From a virus (taxonomy: Duplodnaviria > Caudoviricetes): a stretch of 64,000 nt of DNA. The translations under genes were made by a program, and so were the position numbers. The DNA lies in IMG/VR virus record IMGVR_UViG_3300047375_000738; one strand, given 5' to 3'. This document shows, piece after piece, positions 26,595-61,915 of the stretch; position 1 is the stretch's first letter, and the number at the start of each line of letters is the position of its first letter. The notes beneath the pieces are model-generated. The model was not told the origin of the DNA. It saw only the letters and a list, made by a program, of their open reading frames with translations, and ran no database searches.

Positions 26595-26959
26595 TACAAT
26601 CCGTCCTTCTCTGTATTTTTAAAGTCTGGTTGCCCGCCTACATAAGGTGCAAAGTCTCTACCGTTTGCTACCATACAAGCATAGCCATCGCCGTATACTT
26701 GTAACATTGTCCAAGTGCCTGTGTCTTGATTTGTAAAGAAGAACATACCTCCTGTAAACGGTTGGTTGCCTTGCATACCAAATTGTAGTCCGGTACCTGT
26801 GAACAGCATCGACTCTCCGTACTTGGCAGGTGTCTTCAACATCTCTGCAAACGGAGCGCAAGGTTGTTTTGTATAAAATGTTTTGGCTTGTTGGTCTTGG
26901 GCACTTACAATTGGAGCGGTTAGGCACAATATAAATGCCAAGGCGATTAATCTTAGCAT
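26594..26959 (-). CDS. Secreted hypothetical protein
   Basis: Signal peptide MLRLIALAFILCLTAPIVSA; two Cys. Confidence 0.65.
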   Translation of the reverse strand: MLRLIALAFILCLTAPIVSAQDQQAKTFYTKQPCAPFAEMLKTPAKYGESMLFTGTGLQFGMQGNQPFTGGMFFFTNQDTGTWTMLQVYGDGYACMVANGRDFAPYVGGQPDFKNTEKDGL

Positions 26960-44018: not shown

Positions 44019-44252
44019 TTATTTCTCTCCAACAAAATCTAGCTCTGAATGTTTAAGTTTTAAAAACGTAAAATGCTTTTGTGATAGTTCAGCATAATAA
44101 TACATCTTGTCAGGTGTATACTCGACCCACATACGACTGCTGTATTTTTTAATTTCATCTGCAACCGTTTCACCAACTTGATGTGCAAACGGATCCCACG
44201 GACTAAGCTCAAGAAAGTCTGGCGTGTTTGAACTAGCAATACATACCTTCAT
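44019..44252 (-). CDS. Hypothetical protein
   Basis: 77 aa, coupled to helicase stop. Confidence 0.55.
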   Translation of the reverse strand: MKVCIASSNTPDFLELSPWDPFAHQVGETVADEIKKYSSRMWVEYTPDKMYYYAELSQKHFTFLKLKHSELDFVGEK

Positions 44253-45661
44253 TCAGTACCCAAGTTATTAATAAAGTTACGTAGTTGCGTACTATCAGCA
44301 TCTGCTTTGAGCTTTGGCGCACTTGATCCACTAACTGGATCTTGTACTGGTGCATTGCTACGTTTAATATTGTCTAAGATGTTGCTGCCTGTAGTTGTAC
44401 TAGTTGCACCATCGTCATCATCATCGCCCAAGTCTTCAATGCGCAGTGTGTCTAAGTTAAAGCCTAGATCAATCTTTTGTCCTACTCCACTTGAGTTACG
44501 TGTTTTCATCAACTGTAGCTGATAGCGTCCACGTTCACGCATAGCTCTACTTGTAAAGATACCAAACACGTTGTCCGCAGTCTGGATCTTACTAAGTCCA
44601 CCACTGATGTGCGAGTGATCAAATTCAATCTCTTCCACAGCACCTCTGTTTAACTGTGCTGCTGTTACAAACACTGTGTTCAATTCCATTGCTAGGTTAC
44701 GTAGTTCTTCACTTACGTACTTGTCTTTGATAAACAAGTTCTCTGCACTTACCTTTGTGCTTGCTGGCATCAACAAGTCCAAGTAGTCAATCAGCAGTAC
44801 GTCTACCTTCTTGCCTGTTTTAATCTCATACTCTTTAATGTAGCTACGTACATCGTTTGCTGTCTTGCCACTTGGCATATACTTGACTTGGAATGCACCC
44901 GACTTCTTGCCAATAATCTTAACCTTCATTTCAACATCGTCAATGCTCTTAAACACATCACGACTTGGAATGCCTGTGGTCATACTATCAAGTCTCATAC
45001 TAACTAGACTCTCTGCAAGCTCTAGTGTCAAGTAGATTACATTCAAGCCTTTCTCAGCCATGTTAACGCCAATGTTAGCAAGGAACAAACTCTTACCTGC
45101 ACCCGAACCACCTGCAAAGATATTCAGCTCGCCTCTGTTGAAGCCGCCAAACAGTTTCTTATCCATAGCTGGCCAGCCTGTGCTTACCTGTCCGTTAGTA
45201 CTCTTGATGCCTTCTAGTCTAGCTCTTGGATCAGCATAGTAGTCTGTACCCAAGTCTTTTTGCAAACCAATCTGTACAGCCTTCTTAACTAGATCCTCGC
45301 ACTGCCCATAGTCACCGTTCTCTAACAAGTCGGCACTCTTTAGGATTGCTGCTTCTAGTGCCTTGTGTTTACTAAACGTTTCAAACTCTTGCATCAGCCA
45401 GTCATAGTGATTTTCTTGTAGCTGCCCTGGATCTTTTAAATTAATATCAGTTGCTGCATTAATCATATCAAACGTAGGCAATGCATTGTGTTCACTAACA
45501 TAATTGTTTAAAAACTCTGCTGGTGCCTTTAGTCTTCTATCAAAACTATCTGGATCAAACACAGCCTGACAACGTACAAAGCTCTCGGCATCGCTCATCA
45601 TCATTTCAAGATATACTTTCTGTATATCATATCCATAGTCTGTGTTTTGTCTAGTTGCCAT
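44249..45661 (-). CDS. DnaB-like replicative helicase (T4 gp41-type)
   Basis: GGSGAGKS, TLELAE, LLIDYLDL, TAAQLNR, QLMKTRNS. Confidence 0.93.
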   Translation of the reverse strand: MATRQNTDYGYDIQKVYLEMMMSDAESFVRCQAVFDPDSFDRRLKAPAEFLNNYVSEHNALPTFDMINAATDINLKDPGQLQENHYDWLMQEFETFSKHKALEAAILKSADLLENGDYGQCEDLVKKAVQIGLQKDLGTDYYADPRARLEGIKSTNGQVSTGWPAMDKKLFGGFNRGELNIFAGGSGAGKSLFLANIGVNMAEKGLNVIYLTLELAESLVSMRLDSMTTGIPSRDVFKSIDDVEMKVKIIGKKSGAFQVKYMPSGKTANDVRSYIKEYEIKTGKKVDVLLIDYLDLLMPASTKVSAENLFIKDKYVSEELRNLAMELNTVFVTAAQLNRGAVEEIEFDHSHISGGLSKIQTADNVFGIFTSRAMRERGRYQLQLMKTRNSSGVGQKIDLGFNLDTLRIEDLGDDDDDGATSTTTGSNILDNIKRSNAPVQDPVSGSSAPKLKADADSTQLRNFINNLGTE

Positions 45662-48079: not shown

Positions 48080-48198
48080 TTGTAAATAAACGGATCACGT
48101 TTTCTAAGTTCTTTTAGTCGCTTGCGCCAAGTAATTTCTTCCTTGATACGTGTGTATGGCCAAATAATAATTCGCCAAACTTTCTTAATTAAAACCAT
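48076..48198 (-). CDS. 40-aa basic peptide ending KRDPFIYK
   Basis: MVLIKKVWRIIIWPYTRIKEEITWRKRLKELRKRDPFIYK; overlaps both neighbours; not in ORF track. Confidence 0.6.
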   Translation of the reverse strand: MVLIKKVWRIIIWPYTRIKEEITWRKRLKELRKRDPFIYK

Positions 48199-49166
48199 TT
48201 CTTTGCTCTCAATCTAATTTTAAGTGGGCTGCTTTCGGCAGCATTTGCAATACTATACAATGTATATAGTCTACCGTATTTACTCACAGCATCTCCTACA
48301 TCGTTAATGTCTGAATCCCAAAGTGGTAGACTAACACTCCATCCTAGTTCAATAGCTTGCTCAACTAACTTACTACCTGCACTATCTCTGTCAGGCACAA
48401 CTATAACATCTTTTGCAAGTCTATTTAATAGCATTGCTTGTTGGTCATTGATTTCACTACCGCCTAGCGCACATCCATCTATGTGAATAGCATCTACCTG
48501 TCCTTCACATACAATAGCAAACACTTTGTTGTAGCCTTGTTCGTCAAGTCCATATACAAAGCCTGGCTGTGTTTCTGTAAGATACTTGGGCTTTTTATCT
48601 TCTGTAATAGTTCTAGCAGTCCATCCTACAATACGTTTCTCATAATAAAATGGAATAATAAGCCTGTCACGATACCCTAAGCTAGGGCTCCAGTAGTAAT
48701 CTGTATCATCTAAGTTTAAGTTACGAGCAGCTATATATTCTAGTATAGCTATACTAAACTTGTTGAAGTCTTTTATATCTGCAATTTTTACAGCATCTGG
48801 TGGTAGTGGTACAGTTTCAAACGTAGGCAGTTCTATCTTGCGCTCTGCTACTTCAACACCTTCGTTTATACGCATTACATCTAGTGCAAGTTTATTAATT
48901 TCGCTATCGGGTGTATTGCACCATTCTAGTAACTTTTTAAACTTGTAACTAAGACTACGTCCTGGTTGCCAACTAGCTTTGTATCCACAGTTGAAACAGT
49001 GATAGCTTATAACATCGCCTTCACTGATAAGTCCACCGCGACCTCTGGTATCAGTAGTGTTGCCATTGTTATGACAGCAAGGTGCATTGAAGCTAGTCCA
49101 ACCACTAGGTGTAGTTTTACGCTTCGAAGGCAGATAGGCTGTCAATAGATCAGATACAATGCTCAT
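48189..49166 (-). CDS. DNA primase (T4 gp61-type)
   Basis: Zn ribbon NAPCC...YHCFNC; RLIIPF; TOPRIM CEGQVDA and PDRD; sigma70 promoter 49173-49201. Confidence 0.9.
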   Translation of the reverse strand: MSIVSDLLTAYLPSKRKTTPSGWTSFNAPCCHNNGNTTDTRGRGGLISEGDVISYHCFNCGYKASWQPGRSLSYKFKKLLEWCNTPDSEINKLALDVMRINEGVEVAERKIELPTFETVPLPPDAVKIADIKDFNKFSIAILEYIAARNLNLDDTDYYWSPSLGYRDRLIIPFYYEKRIVGWTARTITEDKKPKYLTETQPGFVYGLDEQGYNKVFAIVCEGQVDAIHIDGCALGGSEINDQQAMLLNRLAKDVIVVPDRDSAGSKLVEQAIELGWSVSLPLWDSDINDVGDAVSKYGRLYTLYSIANAAESSPLKIRLRAKKWF

Positions 49167-49197: not shown

Positions 49198-49548
49198 TCA
49201 ATGATTTAATGTAATTGAATTAATTGTTCCAGCAGTCCATGTATCAACATATGCTCTTACCCATACATAGTTGCCTGTAAAGTTATACATAAACGATCCA
49301 GTACTTCCGGTGTATGTATTTTCTGTATCAGCTACATCAAACCAATCTGCTTCTACAGGGGTTGTTGCTAGTGTAGCTTGTATAACTACTCTGCCACGGA
49401 ATTCATTTGCTAGATTATATTGTACAGTATGAAATCCGTCTGCACGACTATAGTAACCGTCACCTTTGTATTTGTCTCCAGTTGCAGTTTGAGTAGAGCT
49501 ATCTCCTACATGAGACGATGCTGATAAAATTGTTTCACTATTTGTCAT
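49198..49548 (-). CDS. Hypothetical (probably virion) protein
   Basis: Beta-rich; TAAATA 4 nt before ATG; GNYVWVRA resembles the end of the upstream gene product. Confidence 0.5.
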   Translation of the reverse strand: MTNSETILSASSHVGDSSTQTATGDKYKGDGYYSRADGFHTVQYNLANEFRGRVVIQATLATTPVEADWFDVADTENTYTGSTGSFMYNFTGNYVWVRAYVDTWTAGTINSITLNH

Positions 49549-49560
49549 GCTGTATTTACC

Positions 49561-50349
49561 TTAATTTCTAATTAGAACCTTTGTTACTTTGTCTGTTGGA
49601 TCAGCAGTTGCTTTTAATCTTAGATAACTAAACACACCGTTTATATTAGTTGGTACAGGCTGAGACTCATTGCCAGTAAATGTGATAGTTGACAATGTCG
49701 TCCAGTTGTTTAGTCCTGTAATTTGATTATCAAGTGTCCCTTGTATCTCAATATCGCCAACATATGAATCTGTGTATATTGCAAGTGTATGTAATGCTTC
49801 GTTGCCATTAAGCCCAGGCTCGGCTGTAATCTTAGTTGAGTCATCGCTGCCTGCATACCATTGCGAATTTTCTTCTTTAAAATTAATTATTTCTTTACTT
49901 AATTTTGGACCTGGGTATGCAACACTGTCTAGCATAATTACGCCAGCACTTTCAAAATCTCTATTTGCATATGTAACAGTATTTGTGGAGCCGTTTGACA
50001 TATAGATATTATATTTTAAATATTGCTGTTTTACATTTAATAAATCGTTTTCAGTAAGCGATACATTAAACATGCCTTTGGTTGAAGTTGTACTACCGTC
50101 GTCTGTAACCGTACAAGCTCTTTCGATTATCTTTGAATTGTTTTCATCAAATATTACTATGTACGGAGTATCTGTTATCCATACTGGCTTTTGATCCGCA
50201 TTGATAAATCTAAATTGAATAGCGTTATCGATGCCTCTATAAATTTTTAATTGTCTACTATACACTGGTCTATACTCCACAACAAATCCAGTATCGTTTG
50301 ATACAACGTCTATTTTGTTTTCGACTAAATATCTAGGTATTAGTTGCAT
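49561..50349 (-). CDS. Hypothetical (probably virion/baseplate) protein
   Basis: Beta-rich; LKIYRGIDNAIQF; TAAATA promoter. Confidence 0.5.
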   Translation of the reverse strand: MQLIPRYLVENKIDVVSNDTGFVVEYRPVYSRQLKIYRGIDNAIQFRFINADQKPVWITDTPYIVIFDENNSKIIERACTVTDDGSTTSTKGMFNVSLTENDLLNVKQQYLKYNIYMSNGSTNTVTYANRDFESAGVIMLDSVAYPGPKLSKEIINFKEENSQWYAGSDDSTKITAEPGLNGNEALHTLAIYTDSYVGDIEIQGTLDNQITGLNNWTTLSTITFTGNESQPVPTNINGVFSYLRLKATADPTDKVTKVLIRN

Positions 50350-50382: not shown

Positions 50383-50757
50383 ATGTTATTAAAAGAAATA
50401 GAGAATCAGTATCCATATATTAGTGTTGTCGCTTACGGCGGCAACGAATACGTGGGCATCATATCAAATCAAGATGCATTTGTAACAAGTATGTTTATAT
50501 ACACCTCATTAAAAACTATTGATGAAAAGGAATTATTATTAGACCTTGGAGATATTTGGTGGTGGGAATCAAACAGAATGATACCAATTAATATTTTCCT
50601 TAAAAGAGAAATGGAAAGATTTAATTATAGTTTGCTTACAATGAATAGTAAAAACGTTAAAGTAGTAATTGGTCCGTGTGTTAATATCAACAACTTGTCA
50701 ATCAAACGTGTTAAACGCAAAAGTGTTCAACTTATAAAACGATCTGCTAGTACGTAA
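50383..50757 (+). CDS. Hypothetical protein
   Basis: 124 aa; WWWESNRMIPINIFL. Confidence 0.6.
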   Translation: MLLKEIENQYPYISVVAYGGNEYVGIISNQDAFVTSMFIYTSLKTIDEKELLLDLGDIWWWESNRMIPINIFLKREMERFNYSLLTMNSKNVKVVIGPCVNINNLSIKRVKRKSVQLIKRSAST

Positions 50758-51307
50758 GACTTTCACAGATTAAATTTACATGTACAACACAAGATAATGC
50801 ATATGCTACAGCATGTGCTTTCTTAAAATAGTAACTGCCGTCTTCAGGCTTCTTCCAAACTTCTTTGAATATCGTTTGCCATGTTTCGTTGGCAAGATGC
50901 CTCTTGGCAGGCCGAATTATCGCTAGTGTCGCTGCTAACTGTTCTACCGAAGTAGGTTTCAATTGCTGCAATAGTTCGCTGTGCCCGTTTAGATGAAAGA
51001 CTTGATCTGAAAAGTCTTTGTGTTCCAATAGTTGCCATAACGGTTCCTTCTCCATTAGTGTGTTTAAGTGTGCTTCGTTCTTAACGTCTTTGTATATGCT
51101 TACGTTAAGAAAGTCTAGTTTAAAGTATCCACGTTCTTCTGCGGTCTTGTGTTCAATAGTAGATAGATTGTCTATAGGATTATGAGGACACTCTGTAACA
51201 TATACACCAGTGTTGTGTTTTTTACCTGTATCTAATTTTGCCACACGATGTTCTATCTTATCTAGTATAAGATTACGATCGGCAAAGTCAATATCAATAT
51301 CTGGCAT
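50747..51307 (-). CDS. Minimal DnaE (Pol III alpha)-like catalytic core
   Basis: PDIDIDF, KHNTGVY, GYFKLDFLNV, AIIRP, YFKKAHAVAY in 186 aa. Confidence 0.75.
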   Translation of the reverse strand: MPDIDIDFADRNLILDKIEHRVAKLDTGKKHNTGVYVTECPHNPIDNLSTIEHKTAEERGYFKLDFLNVSIYKDVKNEAHLNTLMEKEPLWQLLEHKDFSDQVFHLNGHSELLQQLKPTSVEQLAATLAIIRPAKRHLANETWQTIFKEVWKKPEDGSYYFKKAHAVAYALSCVVHVNLICESLTY

Positions 51308-51309
51308 TT

Positions 51310-52014
51310 TTATACTTTCGTGCTATCAAAACTAAACCAACCCGATGGCACTCTTATATGCCATCTATTGTCTATGATTTTGTAAATGCATTTGTTATCT
51401 AAGAATATATTATTTTTTGTTATTTCACATTCATAATTATTAGAAAAAAATCCTGAATGAGAAACATTACTTTTTCTACGTGGAAGCCATTGTAAATTGT
51501 TTACATAACCTTTGTGTATATGTTGGTACATTTTTTGATGCAGCAATTCAAACGGCCGGTTGTCAAAGACATAATCAATTGTATATTTGTCTAGTTCACA
51601 TTCGTCTCCCCAAAGCATAACATTTATTTCTTTGTCTGGAAAAAATTGAAAAAAAGAAAGTCTAGTTGTTCCTGGATGACAAAAATATTTATTGTTAAGA
51701 TAATTAATACTAATTGGATCTTTCCATTTAGAATTTGCTAGTTCATAAGTTATAAGTAGAGATCTAAATAATGCTTCATTACGAACAAAATGTATGTCAT
51801 ACAATTTTTGTTCTAACACATTTAATCTTTCACATGTTCTTCTATGTGTATCAAGTCCTATAAGATTTGTAATCTTTACAAGATTTCCAAGTGTAACTTT
51901 ACAAATACGAAAATTATATTTTTCTTTTGCTAGTAAAAAATGTTCTTTTGTTTTGATAATGTTGCTAGTTTGATCACATACATTTCCGTTTACTTTTTTT
52001 TCGAGATTAGGCAT
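51310..52014 (-). CDS. Hypothetical protein (paralog of 53119..53757)
   Basis: KDPISI...HPGTTRL; very AT-rich. Confidence 0.55.
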   Translation of the reverse strand: MPNLEKKVNGNVCDQTSNIIKTKEHFLLAKEKYNFRICKVTLGNLVKITNLIGLDTHRRTCERLNVLEQKLYDIHFVRNEALFRSLLITYELANSKWKDPISINYLNNKYFCHPGTTRLSFFQFFPDKEINVMLWGDECELDKYTIDYVFDNRPFELLHQKMYQHIHKGYVNNLQWLPRRKSNVSHSGFFSNNYECEITKNNIFLDNKCIYKIIDNRWHIRVPSGWFSFDSTKV

Positions 52015-52022
52015 GTTCTATC

Positions 52023-52313
52023 CTATAGTATAAACAGTTGCACCATAGCAATGCTGTTCATTACAACAAACCATGCACACAAGACTATTGCAAATGCTGC
52101 TTTACGTATTACTGTACTTATAACTCCGAGTATACTGCCTAGCAAATACAAAGGAATAAAAATCTTTGTTGCTGGGTCTAATACTGTAAATGTTAGAATA
52201 GCACTTGCAACAATCAATAATGTTGTTTCGACCATTTCGCAATAAAATGCAATAGGTGACAGCCTATAACTTTCTTTGCAAAAGTCTACAATATATTTAA
52301 TCAAGTTTGCCAT
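52023..52313 (-). CDS. Small membrane protein
   Basis: Three hydrophobic segments. Confidence 0.6.
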   Translation of the reverse strand: MANLIKYIVDFCKESYRLSPIAFYCEMVETTLLIVASAILTFTVLDPATKIFIPLYLLGSILGVISTVIRKAAFAIVLCAWFVVMNSIAMVQLFIL

Positions 52314-52704
52314 TACGTCTCATTTCTGCACGAATTTTTGTTGCACTTATGTTATGTATTGTAGCACCCAAATCGTGTTCTGTCAAGGTATATCCTACAC
52401 CTCTGCCATAACTAATATCTACAATATTAGGAACAATCATAATAACATATTCTTTGTCATATGTAAAACCTTCTTTTGCTAGTTCTTTTTTAATATTTCC
52501 CATAACATCTGTAACAATAAATGGATTATCATCTTGTGTTGCTGTACGTCCACCTGATGCATCAGTGTCTTGTGGCACAGTTCTAATCTGTATACATACT
52601 TGTCCTGTTTCAGCAAGAGCCCGCTTAAATAGTTCAGTATGACCAGCATGCCAAGGTTGCCAGCGTCCTAGCATTTGCGTTGTAGGTTTAAATCTATCAA
52701 ACAC
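52297..52704 (-). CDS. HIGH-motif cytidylyltransferase-like protein
   Basis: GRWQPWHAGH; ISATKIR. Confidence 0.75.
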   Translation of the reverse strand: MFDRFKPTTQMLGRWQPWHAGHTELFKRALAETGQVCIQIRTVPQDTDASGGRTATQDDNPFIVTDVMGNIKKELAKEGFTYDKEYVIMIVPNIVDISYGRGVGYTLTEHDLGATIHNISATKIRAEMRRNGKLD

Positions 52705-53122
52705 GATTAATACCCATCCAACGTTGTACTACTGGCATTAGTTGTTCGTGTGCATTGTCAAACCATTTCTCTACATGGTAGTCTACAAGCTCTGGCGTTT
52801 CAAACATATCATTTGTGTCTTCAAAACGGCCACGAGAAATAGTATCCATCCACACTGTATAATCTGGATTAAATTCTAACCGTGCTTCTGGAGTTGGGCA
52901 AACAAAGTCAGCAACAGCAATCTTGCCTGCCATTACAACACCGTCTGCTAGATGTTTCATACGTTGTGCTTGGCGCATACGTCCTTCTGGTGTAAAGTCC
53001 CAATCATCGTAACTTGTGCGTACTACGTCTGCGTTTAGATGGACGCCGCCAATTAGTTCTGCAAAAGGTTTTGCTAATGTAGTCTTGCCGCTACCAGGCA
53101 ACCCAAAAATTAATATCTTCAT
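52697..53122 (-). CDS. cysC: Adenylylsulfate kinase-like P-loop protein
   Basis: GLPGSGKTT, LNADVVR, DFVCP, FETPE. Confidence 0.7.
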   Translation of the reverse strand: MKILIFGLPGSGKTTLAKPFAELIGGVHLNADVVRTSYDDWDFTPEGRMRQAQRMKHLADGVVMAGKIAVADFVCPTPEARLEFNPDYTVWMDTISRGRFEDTNDMFETPELVDYHVEKWFDNAHEQLMPVVQRWMGINRV

Positions 53123-53757
53123 TTTTCCTCCATTAAATTAGGTAAACAAATTTTCCAGTCGTGGTCTTTTTTAAAGACTTCGATATCATTAAAATATACA
53201 GTATCGTCTTTTAAATAAATCTCAATATCTTCTTGGGTTACTAAATTTTTATAGCTTTGTTGTCTATCATACGGACGTACTTGTGTAGTAATATTTTCGC
53301 CCCATAATGTTTCTATTACTATATTATCACTAAGAAATCGAATACTGTCGTCAGTACGCCCAAATTTTCTAAATTTAAAATATATTATTTCTTGGTTAGG
53401 CAAATAAGGAATGAATAAAGAACGTTTTAATCCAGGTTGTATTTCAATTCGTTGTCCATCGTCGTGTATGGTAATTGGATCTCTAATGAATCTATCTTTT
53501 ATTAAAATAAAATATACATCAAGAAGTGAATTATAATTATCTATTGGGTTATGTATAAAGTCTCGATTTGTATATGATTGTTTACTTTTATTTTTAAAAT
53601 ATCTTATAACTAATTGATTCCATCGATTGTATTGTGGCGATGCGTGTTTAACAATATTTTTATAGAACTCAAAAGAAGATGTTTTGTGTACAACAAAATT
53701 TAAATCTCTTTTTGCGTATTCTAAATCGTCGATTGTTTTTAAAGAATACACAGTCAT
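53119..53757 (-). CDS. Hypothetical protein (paralog of 51310..52014)
   Basis: RDPITI...QPGLKRS; very AT-rich. Confidence 0.55.
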   Translation of the reverse strand: MTVYSLKTIDDLEYAKRDLNFVVHKTSSFEFYKNIVKHASPQYNRWNQLVIRYFKNKSKQSYTNRDFIHNPIDNYNSLLDVYFILIKDRFIRDPITIHDDGQRIEIQPGLKRSLFIPYLPNQEIIYFKFRKFGRTDDSIRFLSDNIVIETLWGENITTQVRPYDRQQSYKNLVTQEDIEIYLKDDTVYFNDIEVFKKDHDWKICLPNLMEEK

Positions 53758-54452
53758 TAGAGCATCGCCTTTTTTGCAATATTTTTAATAAGTTCAATAT
53801 CCTTTGGTTGTCTTTTAAATCGCATTGCCCAGTGACTTGGATCTAAAACATTGCTTAACATTCCTAACTGTTCCCCAGATAAACTACTTAATGCTTGTTT
53901 GCCTGAACTACAATTTAGTACTAGCCACGGAGATACTTTACCGTCTTTGATATCCCATGTGAGTCTGTTTTCATTTACATATCTAAAGTAATCGTTGAAT
54001 CGACTATTTTTCTCTTCAGCCCATTTTGTCATTGTTGCAATACTACGTTCAAGTGCAGTTTCAACGCCTTCTTTACGTATAAGCTCTACAGCATATGCTT
54101 CGTACATTTCTTCTCGGCACCAATGGTCGAGTTTTACATTACTAGTAACAACATAATCGATATACTTGTCAGGATAAAGAGGACGCACATTAGATACAAA
54201 ACTTCCAAACTTAACAAAGGCATTATAAAAACTACTCTTTGAAAACTCTTCATACGTTTTTTCTTTTTTGTGTCCTGCACTTAAAGTATAGAATCGTTGG
54301 AATGCATAAAAGCCCAACGTAACACGTTTTTCATCTTTTTGTAGCCAGCGTCTTTTGGGCTCACACATATGCGCTAAGAGTGTGCTTTCTTTAACATAAC
54401 TCTTATTACAATATTCGCATGTGTGTTTAGATGTCAACTTTGTCGTAACCAT
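53757..54452 (-). CDS. Protein with N-terminal C2H2-like zinc finger
   Basis: CEYCNKSYVKESTLLAHMC; start moved to MVTTK. Confidence 0.6.
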   Translation of the reverse strand: MVTTKLTSKHTCEYCNKSYVKESTLLAHMCEPKRRWLQKDEKRVTLGFYAFQRFYTLSAGHKKEKTYEEFSKSSFYNAFVKFGSFVSNVRPLYPDKYIDYVVTSNVKLDHWCREEMYEAYAVELIRKEGVETALERSIATMTKWAEEKNSRFNDYFRYVNENRLTWDIKDGKVSPWLVLNCSSGKQALSSLSGEQLGMLSNVLDPSHWAMRFKRQPKDIELIKNIAKKAML

Positions 54453-54897
54453 GCTCTTTGGCAAACTGCTTGATTTCTTTTTTTGTAGATATTCTAGCAA
54501 GTAATTCAACCTCGTCTAATTTCATTTCAGGATATATTTGTGATAGCAATTTTGCTGCTTTACTGCTTTCATCTTTTTTCTTTTTAAGACCAATCCACGG
54601 ATGAAACATTTTCTTTCCAGTTTTGCCAGCAACACACAATAACTGCCATTGTAGTTTGATGTGATTTGTTCCACCAATATCATTCCAGTTTTTATTGTAG
54701 TATTCATTTACTTTGAATACTGCTAATGCTTGGTCTTCGAACTTGCCTTTAACACTACTGATGTAACGATTGAGATTCCATAAGTCACCTTTGATATCTT
54801 TCTTACCAACATCACTTGCTGCATCATACAGCTCTTTGATGCCCATATCAATACTTGGAATAAGTTCTTTAAATAAGTCTAGTTCTTTATTTGGCAT
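54427..54897 (-). CDS. Possible clamp-loader small subunit (T4 gp62-like)
   Basis: LNRYISS, NEYYN, MFHPWI and helical C-terminus resemble gp62 homologues (by eye). Confidence 0.45.
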   Translation of the reverse strand: MPNKELDLFKELIPSIDMGIKELYDAASDVGKKDIKGDLWNLNRYISSVKGKFEDQALAVFKVNEYYNKNWNDIGGTNHIKLQWQLLCVAGKTGKKMFHPWIGLKKKKDESSKAAKLLSQIYPEMKLDEVELLARISTKKEIKQFAKEHGYDKVDI

Positions 54898-60451: not shown

Positions 60452-61915
60452 TTAATTCCAATCAACTTTTTCGATAGTGAATGGGTACTGCGCCTCTTTG
60501 TAAAACTTTTTACGTTGGGTAAGGTGCCGCTTCGCAAACTTGCATGTAGATGTCAAGTCCCATATTTGCACGAAGTCTTTGTCCTTTGCCTTTCTTACAC
60601 CTCTACCAATAGATTGAATTACTCTTACAAAGGACTTGCCAGGCTCCAAAAGAACCAAGTTAAAAATACGAGGAATGTTAAGACCCACGGCAGCAACTCC
60701 ATAGGTCGCGATAATAACCTCATTAGTTCCTTCACGGATTGTATCATATGTTTCTTTCCTGTCTTTGTTTTTAACAGCACCGCTTACAAATGTGCTGCCT
60801 GGTATAAGTTCAGCAAGCATTTCGCCTGCGCTAATTCTATCTACTAGTATTAATGTATTGCCTGATTCTTTTACTGTGTTTAATAATTTGCCTATATATT
60901 CTATTCTTGCTGGATTGTTAACAAGATATTTTAATTCTTCTTGGTAACCGCTGTGTGCTACTGTGTCAATCAATTGTACTACATTAACATGACATTCTGA
61001 CAGTACACCTTTGTCTTGTAATTCTTTTGCCGAGATGTTGCCAATTACAGGACCAAGACTAGCATGAATACTTTCAAACTCAAACTTTTCTTTAGGTACT
61101 GTACCAGTTAGTCCCCAACGTATAGGTGCATTACGTAGGTTGCGAGTGAGCAGGTTTTTAAGAACTTCTGCTTTGGCTTGGTGTACTTCGTCGACAATAA
61201 TAGTGCTTACACCTTCTAGAAACTCTGCAAGTGATAACACTGCTGAGCCGTCTTTTTGCTTCTTGTCTAGAATATTTAAACTCTGCCAAGTGCAAATAGT
61301 GTGAGTCTTACCTAACATCTTCCTGTCTCCGAAGTACACCCCTACATCGAGACCGCAGTTAATATAGTCCTCTTCTGTTTGTTCTACTAACGACTTGTTA
61401 GGAACAATCACAAGACTTCTACCATACGGCTCAGTTATGTGTGACAGCGTTGCTGTGGTAATAGTTTTACCTGCGCCAGTAGCAATCTGTTGCAAGCTCT
61501 GTGGGTTATTCAAAAAGTTATTAATTGCTTCTACTTGATAGTCACGTAGAATAATATCTTCGCCTTCTGCTGGATGACCTTCTGGCCATACTACGCCTTG
61601 ATCCTTCCAGTAGTTTTCTGTTACTGGTGTAAAGTCTAATTGTATAGGATGTCTATTGTCTTGAATATCAACTATTTCAACATTATTTTTTTGTAGCACT
61701 TGACTAACAGTGTCAAGATGATTAACATAGCCAGTACCGCCAATACCAAAAAAAGCAACTTTTCCATCCCAGCGACCAAGTTTATACTGTGGCATATATC
61801 GTGCGTAAGGCACTTCAAACTTGAGAGCATTCGATAACTTTCTCCGTACATCAACGTCTAGTCCTTCTAGTTTAATGTTTACTTCGTCTTCAATTATCAA
61901 TCTACACGTAGCCAT
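60452..61915 (-). CDS. uvsW: UvsW-like SF2 DNA helicase
   Basis: LRDYQ, ATGAGKT, DEVH, GLTGT, GLNIP, QSIGRGVR. Confidence 0.9.
   Translation of the reverse strand: MATCRLIIEDEVNIKLEGLDVDVRRKLSNALKFEVPYARYMPQYKLGRWDGKVAFFGIGGTGYVNHLDTVSQVLQKNNVEIVDIQDNRHPIQLDFTPVTENYWKDQGVVWPEGHPAEGEDIILRDYQVEAINNFLNNPQSLQQIATGAGKTITTATLSHITEPYGRSLVIVPNKSLVEQTEEDYINCGLDVGVYFGDRKMLGKTHTICTWQSLNILDKKQKDGSAVLSLAEFLEGVSTIIVDEVHQAKAEVLKNLLTRNLRNAPIRWGLTGTVPKEKFEFESIHASLGPVIGNISAKELQDKGVLSECHVNVVQLIDTVAHSGYQEELKYLVNNPARIEYIGKLLNTVKESGNTLILVDRISAGEMLAELIPGSTFVSGAVKNKDRKETYDTIREGTNEVIIATYGVAAVGLNIPRIFNLVLLEPGKSFVRVIQSIGRGVRKAKDKDFVQIWDLTSTCKFAKRHLTQRKKFYKEAQYPFTIEKVDWN

Follow-up and report, generated by a model that had tools for sequence, protein, structure and literature searches.

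The stretch of DNA analysed here, 64,000 nucleotides in length and referred to below as the window, comes from an uncultured marine jumbo phage whose branch is very abundant in metagenomes. At 50747..51307 its minus strand carries a gene with an ATG start and a TAG stop codon that encodes a protein of 186 amino acids, designated the C-half in this report. The five sequence motifs quoted in the original prediction are all present in the translated open reading frame and follow each other in the same order as in DnaE. PDIDIDF (residues 2-8; codons at 51284..51304, minus strand, as for all motifs) contains D3 and D5, the counterparts of D401 and D403 of the Escherichia coli α subunit, which are the first two catalytic carboxylates. 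KHNTGVY (residues 30-36; 51200..51220) was placed by motif order and structural alignment and is probably equivalent to the THAAG strand that follows the thumb in DnaE. GYFKLDFL (residues 60-67; 51107..51130) provides K63 and D65, corresponding to K553 and the third catalytic aspartate, D555, of the E. coli protein, whose active-site triad is D401/D403/D555 (PMC8485763). AIIRP (residues 129-133; 50909..50923) includes R132-P133, the equivalent of R639-P640 in the finger-helix motif 'ALFRPG', and YFKKAHAVAY (residues 160-169; 50801..50830) includes K163-A164-H165, which corresponds to K758-S759-H760. The protein begins with MPDIDIDF, i.e. exactly at the DxD metal-binding strand of the Pol III α palm. 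The three catalytic aspartates and the clean gene boundaries noted earlier were both confirmed: D3, D5, and D65 are in place and invariant in 80 of 80 homologues, and the reading frame runs from ATG to TAG with a length that is confined to 185-191 amino acids in 64 genes (the window copy and those of 63 IMG/VR loci).

The gene had been described as lying among T4-type replisome genes, which normally accompany a family-B polymerase. The first part of this statement holds, as the window encodes a DnaB-like helicase (44249-45661), a T4-type primase (48189-49166), a second helicase (60452-61915), and also ribonucleotide reductase (RNR) genes; a PolB gene is not present within the 64 kb. PolB proteins of about 890 amino acids are encoded by two IMG/VR relatives, G002 and G003 (loci L086 and L087), whose C-half proteins are 74 and 72 % identical to the window copy, respectively. 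Their C-terminal ends, ...FNSLFDFGD and ...FNSLFEFGV, form a T4-like tail for clamp binding, which is missing from both halves of the split polymerase described below. The immediate neighbourhood of the C-half gene forms a block with the order Zn-finger gene (phrog_11058; 53757-54509), variable slot, C-half gene, convergent 124-aa gene, virion-protein-like gene, and primase gene. This block is retained in 75-80 of 80 related loci and also in phage PA5oct, where the gene upstream of the C-half gene corresponds to the Zn-finger gene of the window.

In the window, the variable slot is occupied by a 2.4-kb insert (51310-53757, minus strand). Adjacent to the C-half gene it contains an ORF of 234 amino acids (51310-52014, minus strand) without a match in PHROGs or Pfam. 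A further ORF of 212 amino acids, likewise without a PHROG or Pfam match, shares with it a weak stretch at matching positions (E 3e-4). A match to the 'kinase' family phrog_10255 (230 positions; 52297-53122, minus strand) is spread over two ORFs overlapping by 8 nt, a 141-aa P-loop kinase that covers profile positions 2-115 and a 135-aa cytidylyltransferase-like protein that covers positions 124-228; either the pair is naturally encoded by two genes or a bifunctional gene has been split. Among the 80 related loci, the kinase was found in the slot of 23, the cytidylyltransferase-like protein in 20, the 212-aa ORF in a single one, and the 234-aa ORF in none. Downstream, the convergent 124-aa gene (50383-50757, plus strand; phrog_11637, E 1.1e-30) shares 11 nt with the 3' end of the C-half gene, and its position is kept in 76 of the 80 related loci and in PA5oct. 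Two consecutive ORFs of a virion-structural-protein family (phrog_14467, 323 positions; 49198-50349, minus strand) are located between the C-half gene and the primase gene, amid replication genes; the 262-aa ORF covers profile positions 23-241 and the 116-aa ORF positions 201-292, and in PA5oct the annotation of the homologue reads structural protein and notes ESI-MS/MS. In the window, promoter-like sites were not more frequent than in shuffled sequences (27 vs 21.8 ± 4.7), and upstream of the C-half gene neither a recognisable promoter of its own nor a conserved late-promoter box was found. The stop codon of the preceding gene directly adjoins or overlaps the ATG of the C-half gene, both in the window and in many of its relatives, which suggests that the C-half gene is translationally coupled.

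Over its whole length the C-half protein matches the PHROG family phrog_11778, 'DNA polymerase' (E 3.5e-58). In Pfam, DNA_pol3_finger was the sole match, at a sub-threshold E value of 0.0062, and no PHP or OB domain was matched. A tblastn search detected a homologue in 96 deposited phage records; the genomes of the listed matches are of jumbo size (284-490 kb), with one 94-kb record as the sole exception. PA5oct and its kin show 53 % identity to the C-half and the 121Q/PBECO4/Rak2-type phages 37 %; further carriers are Sinorhizobium phage Phosso and Agrobacterium phage Atu_ph07. A near match to the phage itself was not found among 50,697 deposited phage genomes. In public metagenomes the family comprises at least 8000 clusters at 90 % identity (E ≤ 1e-3) and 412 clusters at the 50 % clustering level. 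The best 120 metagenome clusters have lengths of 185-196 amino acids and are 77-99 % identical to the C-half, and a 322-kb ENA contig contains a copy (P0005) with 94 % identity to the window protein. Of 150 listed cluster representatives, 78 are 180-221 amino acids long, and 75 of these 78 full-length representatives have the DxDxD motif inside the first 30 residues.

Such a protein has been described before. Iyer, Anantharaman, Krishnan, Burroughs, and Aravind (2021, Viruses 13:63; PMC7824862) reported a split minimal Pol III α in group 2.2 jumbo phages, the C-terminal unit of which is the Mg2+- and template-binding part. Judged by sequence, the window gene is almost certainly this C-terminal unit, and the family is therefore already known, having been published in 2021 from sequence analysis alone. 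In the literature searched, including that which appeared after 2021, no biochemical or genetic work on any family member was found. Many members are labelled 'DNA polymerase III alpha subunit' by JGI; this label and 'hypothetical protein' should both be avoided for the window gene, for which 'split minimal Pol III alpha, C-terminal unit' is the correct annotation.

The resemblance of the C-half to DnaE is more than chance. With phmmer against the PDB, the single sequence gave weak but collinear pieces of Mycobacterium tuberculosis DnaE1 (residues 1-12 with 413-424, where MPDIDIDF is identical, 88-135 with 616-664, and 157-171 with 773-787). When a profile was built from an alignment of 80 homologues with 28-94 % identity (alignment A2, also the input for AlphaFold2 and for the conservation counts), the PDB search returned exclusively Pol III α chains (nine distinct sequences, E 6.6e-6 to 7.9e-5). 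The profile paired K63/D65 with K553/D555, R132-P133 with R639-P640, and K163-A164-H165 with K758-S759-H760 of the E. coli protein. A full-length cellular DnaE, which was a chance pattern match from the metagenome scan described below and was used for collinear mapping, was matched in three collinear blocks (408-439, 545-644, and 736-767). The structure prediction that had been proposed as a check against the Pol III α palm pointed in the same direction. The AlphaFold2 model of the C-half has a mean pLDDT of 96.3 and a pTM of 0.88, and in a Foldseek search of the PDB the top 17 entries were all C-family polymerases (best E 3.1e-4, probability 1.0). In VIA-align comparisons, 184 of the 186 residues were aligned with residues 461-838 of Taq Pol III α (Z 10.1, rmsd 3.4 Å), residues 419-808 of M. 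tuberculosis DnaE1 gave a Z score of 9.8, and 180 residues were aligned with residues 400-781 of E. coli α (Z 9.4). The five best entries lie at Z 9.4-10.1 with 180-184 aligned residues; another C-family chain, 9qrn (residues 970-1301), scored Z 7.8, and the first unrelated fold Z 3.3.

D3, D5, K63, D65, R132, and P133 are invariant in all 80 homologues; D7, H31, G34, and H165 each occur in 79 of them, K162 in 74, and K163 in 63. H165 is the counterpart of H760 of E. coli, which is invariant in Pol III α and is the proposed steric gate against ribonucleotides (PMC8485763). The position equivalent to S759 is alanine in the window copy (A164), as in 18 of the 80 homologues; in E. coli, an S759A allele complements a temperature-sensitive dnaE allele (PMC8485763). 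The comparison of dN/dS across homologues that had been suggested yielded a median of 0.11 relative to the window copy (range 0.06-0.21; Nei-Gojobori method, 64 genes, with dS near saturation), i.e. purifying selection. The case named as a refutation, in which the homologues are full-length proteins and this copy evolves under relaxed selection, does not apply, since the homologues themselves are 185-191 amino acids long in the 64 genes and selection is purifying.

A Pol-β-type palm requires, in addition to the DxD strand and the third aspartate carried by the C-half, a G[GS] motif, and in the relatives this motif (GVGRGS) is found on a partner protein, the N-half; the two parts are united in one domain only in the fusions described below. 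In PA5oct, the N-half is a 169-aa ORF at 187.5 kb, located 44 kb from the C-half gene (EST35_0220) and ending with ...GVGRGSSVASYVLFLIGVHKVDSLKYNLDIKEFLK; a search with the Pfam model PF07733 (DNA_pol3_alpha) found one more place in this genome, namely that ORF. In G002 and G003, the N-half consists of 185 amino acids (L084:1174-1731 and L083:1177-1734) with the ends ...GVGRGSSVASYVLYLIGVH.INSIQYGLDWREFLR, and its first approximately 100 residues fall outside the PF07733 match; in G002, 122 kb separate the two genes. With 7993 matches, the N-half family equals the C-half family in abundance; GVGRGS is present in 118 of 118 members checked, and the C-terminal ends lie near ...EFLR. The end ...DWREFLR was compared with the cellular DnaE sequence, and this comparison shows that the break comes exactly after the helix-loop that binds NTP and before the first strand that binds metal in the Pol-β-type palm. 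Per phage genus, the counts of the two halves are equal or almost equal (Escherichia 34/34, Salmonella 8/8, Erwinia 8/8, Xanthomonas 4/4, Yersinia 4/4, Klebsiella 11/10). Within the 64-kb window, no N-half was detected, either with the patterns G[RK]GS and I[TS]xx[DN]P or by tblastn with the N-halves of PA5oct, G002, and G003; by analogy to these relatives, its gene is expected elsewhere in the phage's own genome. A weak tblastn match at 26600-26824 (E 0.008) was rejected as it belongs to a signal-peptide protein. The upstream 234-aa gene was also rejected as a partner, having no PHROG or Pfam match and being missing from 80 of 80 related loci.

Natural single-chain forms of the two halves were found by an exhaustive search of the cluster representatives. 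In P0218, a protein of 375 amino acids, the window C-half is matched by residues 190-369; in pairwise comparison, residues 15-180 are 31 % identical to the N-half of G002 (E 9e-23) and residues 189-368 are 35 % identical to the window protein (E 2e-34), and the halves are connected by an 8-residue linker. P0392 and P0393, each 376 amino acids long and 78-81 % identical, come from other sources and have the same in-frame junction, again with an 8-residue linker. Regarding the genomic context of these fusions, a scan of IMG/VR gave no relative, and a metagenome scan gave a single C-half locus, together with two full-length cellular DnaE genes that were chance pattern matches. The three proteins serve as Rosetta-stone evidence for a joint function of the halves as a single enzyme. 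The AlphaFold2 model of P0218 has a pLDDT of 81.8 and a pTM of 0.77. Residues 1-80, the counterpart of the N-half part outside the PF07733 match, are poorly defined (pLDDT 40-64), and this low confidence results from the reduced alignment (A4) used for the model, as MAFFT stacked N-halves onto C-half columns once more than about eight C-halves were included. The model superposes on the Taq Pol III α ternary complex with a Z score of 21.2 (290 residues, rmsd 3.0 Å) and on PolC with a Z score of 20.4; its next neighbours after the C-family are small Pol-β-type nucleotidyltransferases, MenT and Cid1, at Z 2-4. Among the interpretations offered at the outset, that of a split-polymerase subunit agrees with these data: the C-half has its N-terminus at the DxD strand, GVGRGS is encoded by a gene of its own for a protein of about 185 amino acids in PA5oct and the IMG/VR relatives, and both halves are joined in three natural proteins of 375-376 amino acids. 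The notion of a minimal C-family nucleotidyltransferase acting alone is not supported, as the polypeptide is without the NTP-binding half of the Pol-β-type palm. As to a repurposed DNA-modifying enzyme, the data speak neither for nor against it.

On the basis of sequence comparison and structural modelling, the C-half is very probably a subunit of a miniature, two-subunit C-family nucleotidyltransferase that group 2.2 jumbo myoviruses possess beside a T4-type family-B replicase. It carries the strands with D3, D5, and D65, the phosphate-contacting K63, and two finger helices, one with the RP motif and one with the KxH 'steric-gate' motif; the helix-loop with the NTP-binding motif GVGRGS is on the N-half of about 185 amino acids, which in the relatives is encoded by a distant gene. 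The two halves would associate and thereby rebuild a single palm active site. As the steric-gate histidine is conserved, dNTPs are the probable substrate. Since a thumb, a clamp tail, and an exonuclease are lacking, DNA synthesis would presumably be distributive and restricted to short patches, so that repair, the filling of gaps, or a particular step at the fork might be the task of the enzyme, with bulk replication left to PolB. The reading we consider most likely is that of an accessory polymerase which works distributively and uses dNTPs. Templated DNA synthesis is not assured, because the thumb, about 100 finger residues that hold the primer-template and the dNTP, and the clamp-binding peptide are all missing, and we favour a template-directed DNA polymerase over another kind of nucleotidyl transfer by a limited degree.

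A more specific proposal, to which we attach a low probability, is that of a mini-Pol III which is no spare replicase and is assembled on demand, with halves originating from distant, differently timed units and the C-half coupled to the gene upstream in the conserved block near the primase, for a special step that PolB cannot do. Such a step could be the extension of primase products, short-patch synthesis on modified (deazaguanine-type) phage DNA, or untemplated nucleotidyl transfer. If this were true, the pair would also serve as a functioning model for the core of C-family polymerases as it was in the ancestor, before fusion.

The alternative that survives best accepts a real two-piece enzyme and assigns to it another task of Pol-β-type nucleotidyltransferases, such as tailing without a template, the attachment of a nucleotide to a protein or to a DNA end, the production of a nucleotide signal, or the handling of modified nucleotides. 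The deletion of the thumb and of most of the fingers, together with the absence of a PHP domain, a clamp-binding tail, and an OB domain, would suit such a task; the relatives already own a complete T4-type PolB replicase, and MenT and Cid1 are the next neighbours of the fused model, if only at Z 2-4. However, the residues that handle dNTP and template have been kept as well, the steric-gate histidine in 79, the RP motif in 80, K162 in 74, and K163 in 63 of 80 homologues, and the fit of the fused model to the ternary complexes of Taq and PolC with bound DNA reaches Z scores of 20-21, which makes this alternative unlikely in our judgement.

That the 186-aa protein is a self-sufficient minimal polymerase appears very improbable. 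The three catalytic aspartates, the clean boundaries, and a fold that is predicted with confidence for the protein alone speak in its favour, but the chain starts at the DxD strand without an hG[GS] NTP-binding element, this element resides on a separate, equally conserved, and co-occurring protein, and the halves are fused in three natural proteins. Least credible of all is a DnaE remnant in decay, or a decoy without activity that disturbs host Pol III, as might be suspected from the shortness of the protein relative to DnaE and the loss of most domains: the fixed length (185-191 amino acids in 64 genes), the median dN/dS of 0.11, and the abundance of the family exclude decay, the catalytic residues are invariant over 28-94 % identity, and a decoy would be without the region that binds the clamp, τ, or ε and with which it could compete.

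To our knowledge, the split mini-Pol III family, naturally cut through the active site, is the smallest relative of the bacterial replicative polymerase. Should the pair of halves be active, the least that a C-family polymerase needs as its catalytic core would be defined, which bears on the origin of the bacterial replicase, the argument put forward by Iyer et al. (2021). The natural 375-aa single-chain forms offer an easy construct for biochemistry. Both halves are very common (at least 8000 clusters each), with much of this diversity coming from aquatic and marine jumbo phages.

Among known enzymes, MenT toxins and Cid1-type TUTases share with mini-Pol III the minimal palm composed of hG[GS], DxD, and a third carboxylate, but they are without the DnaE-specific finger helices that are conserved in the C-half and reach Z scores of only 2-4. 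DnaE and PolC (PDB 2HNH, 3E0D, 5LEW, and 3F2B) have in common with it the Pol-β-type palm, the triad D401/D403/D555 with K553, the 'RPG' finger helix, the K-S-H steric-gate helix, and the collinear order of these elements. They differ in architecture, being composed of 1100-1400 amino acids in one chain as compared to about 186 and 185 in two. Unlike DnaE, mini-Pol III possesses no PHP domain, clamp-binding motif, OB domain, or τ-binding domain; the thumb is absent from the C-half, where 23 residues join D7 to H31, some 100 finger residues (approximately 642-738 in E. coli) are reduced to about 15, and nothing is equivalent to E. coli α beyond residue ~781. Compared with the split Pol III α of Iyer et al. 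(2021), nothing essential differs in the window copy. The size, the break directly before DxD, and the homologues in PA5oct, Atu_ph07, and 121Q/Rak2-type phages (37-53 % identity) are the same, as are, in the relatives, the distant N-terminal unit and the family-B polymerase and T4-type replisome genes alongside. The main text of that study deals with split forms only, whereas three natural single-chain forms were found here. In addition to these forms and the model built from one of them, the present analysis adds to the earlier description the conservation at residue level, including the steric gate, the test of selection, the abundance figures, and the gene block.
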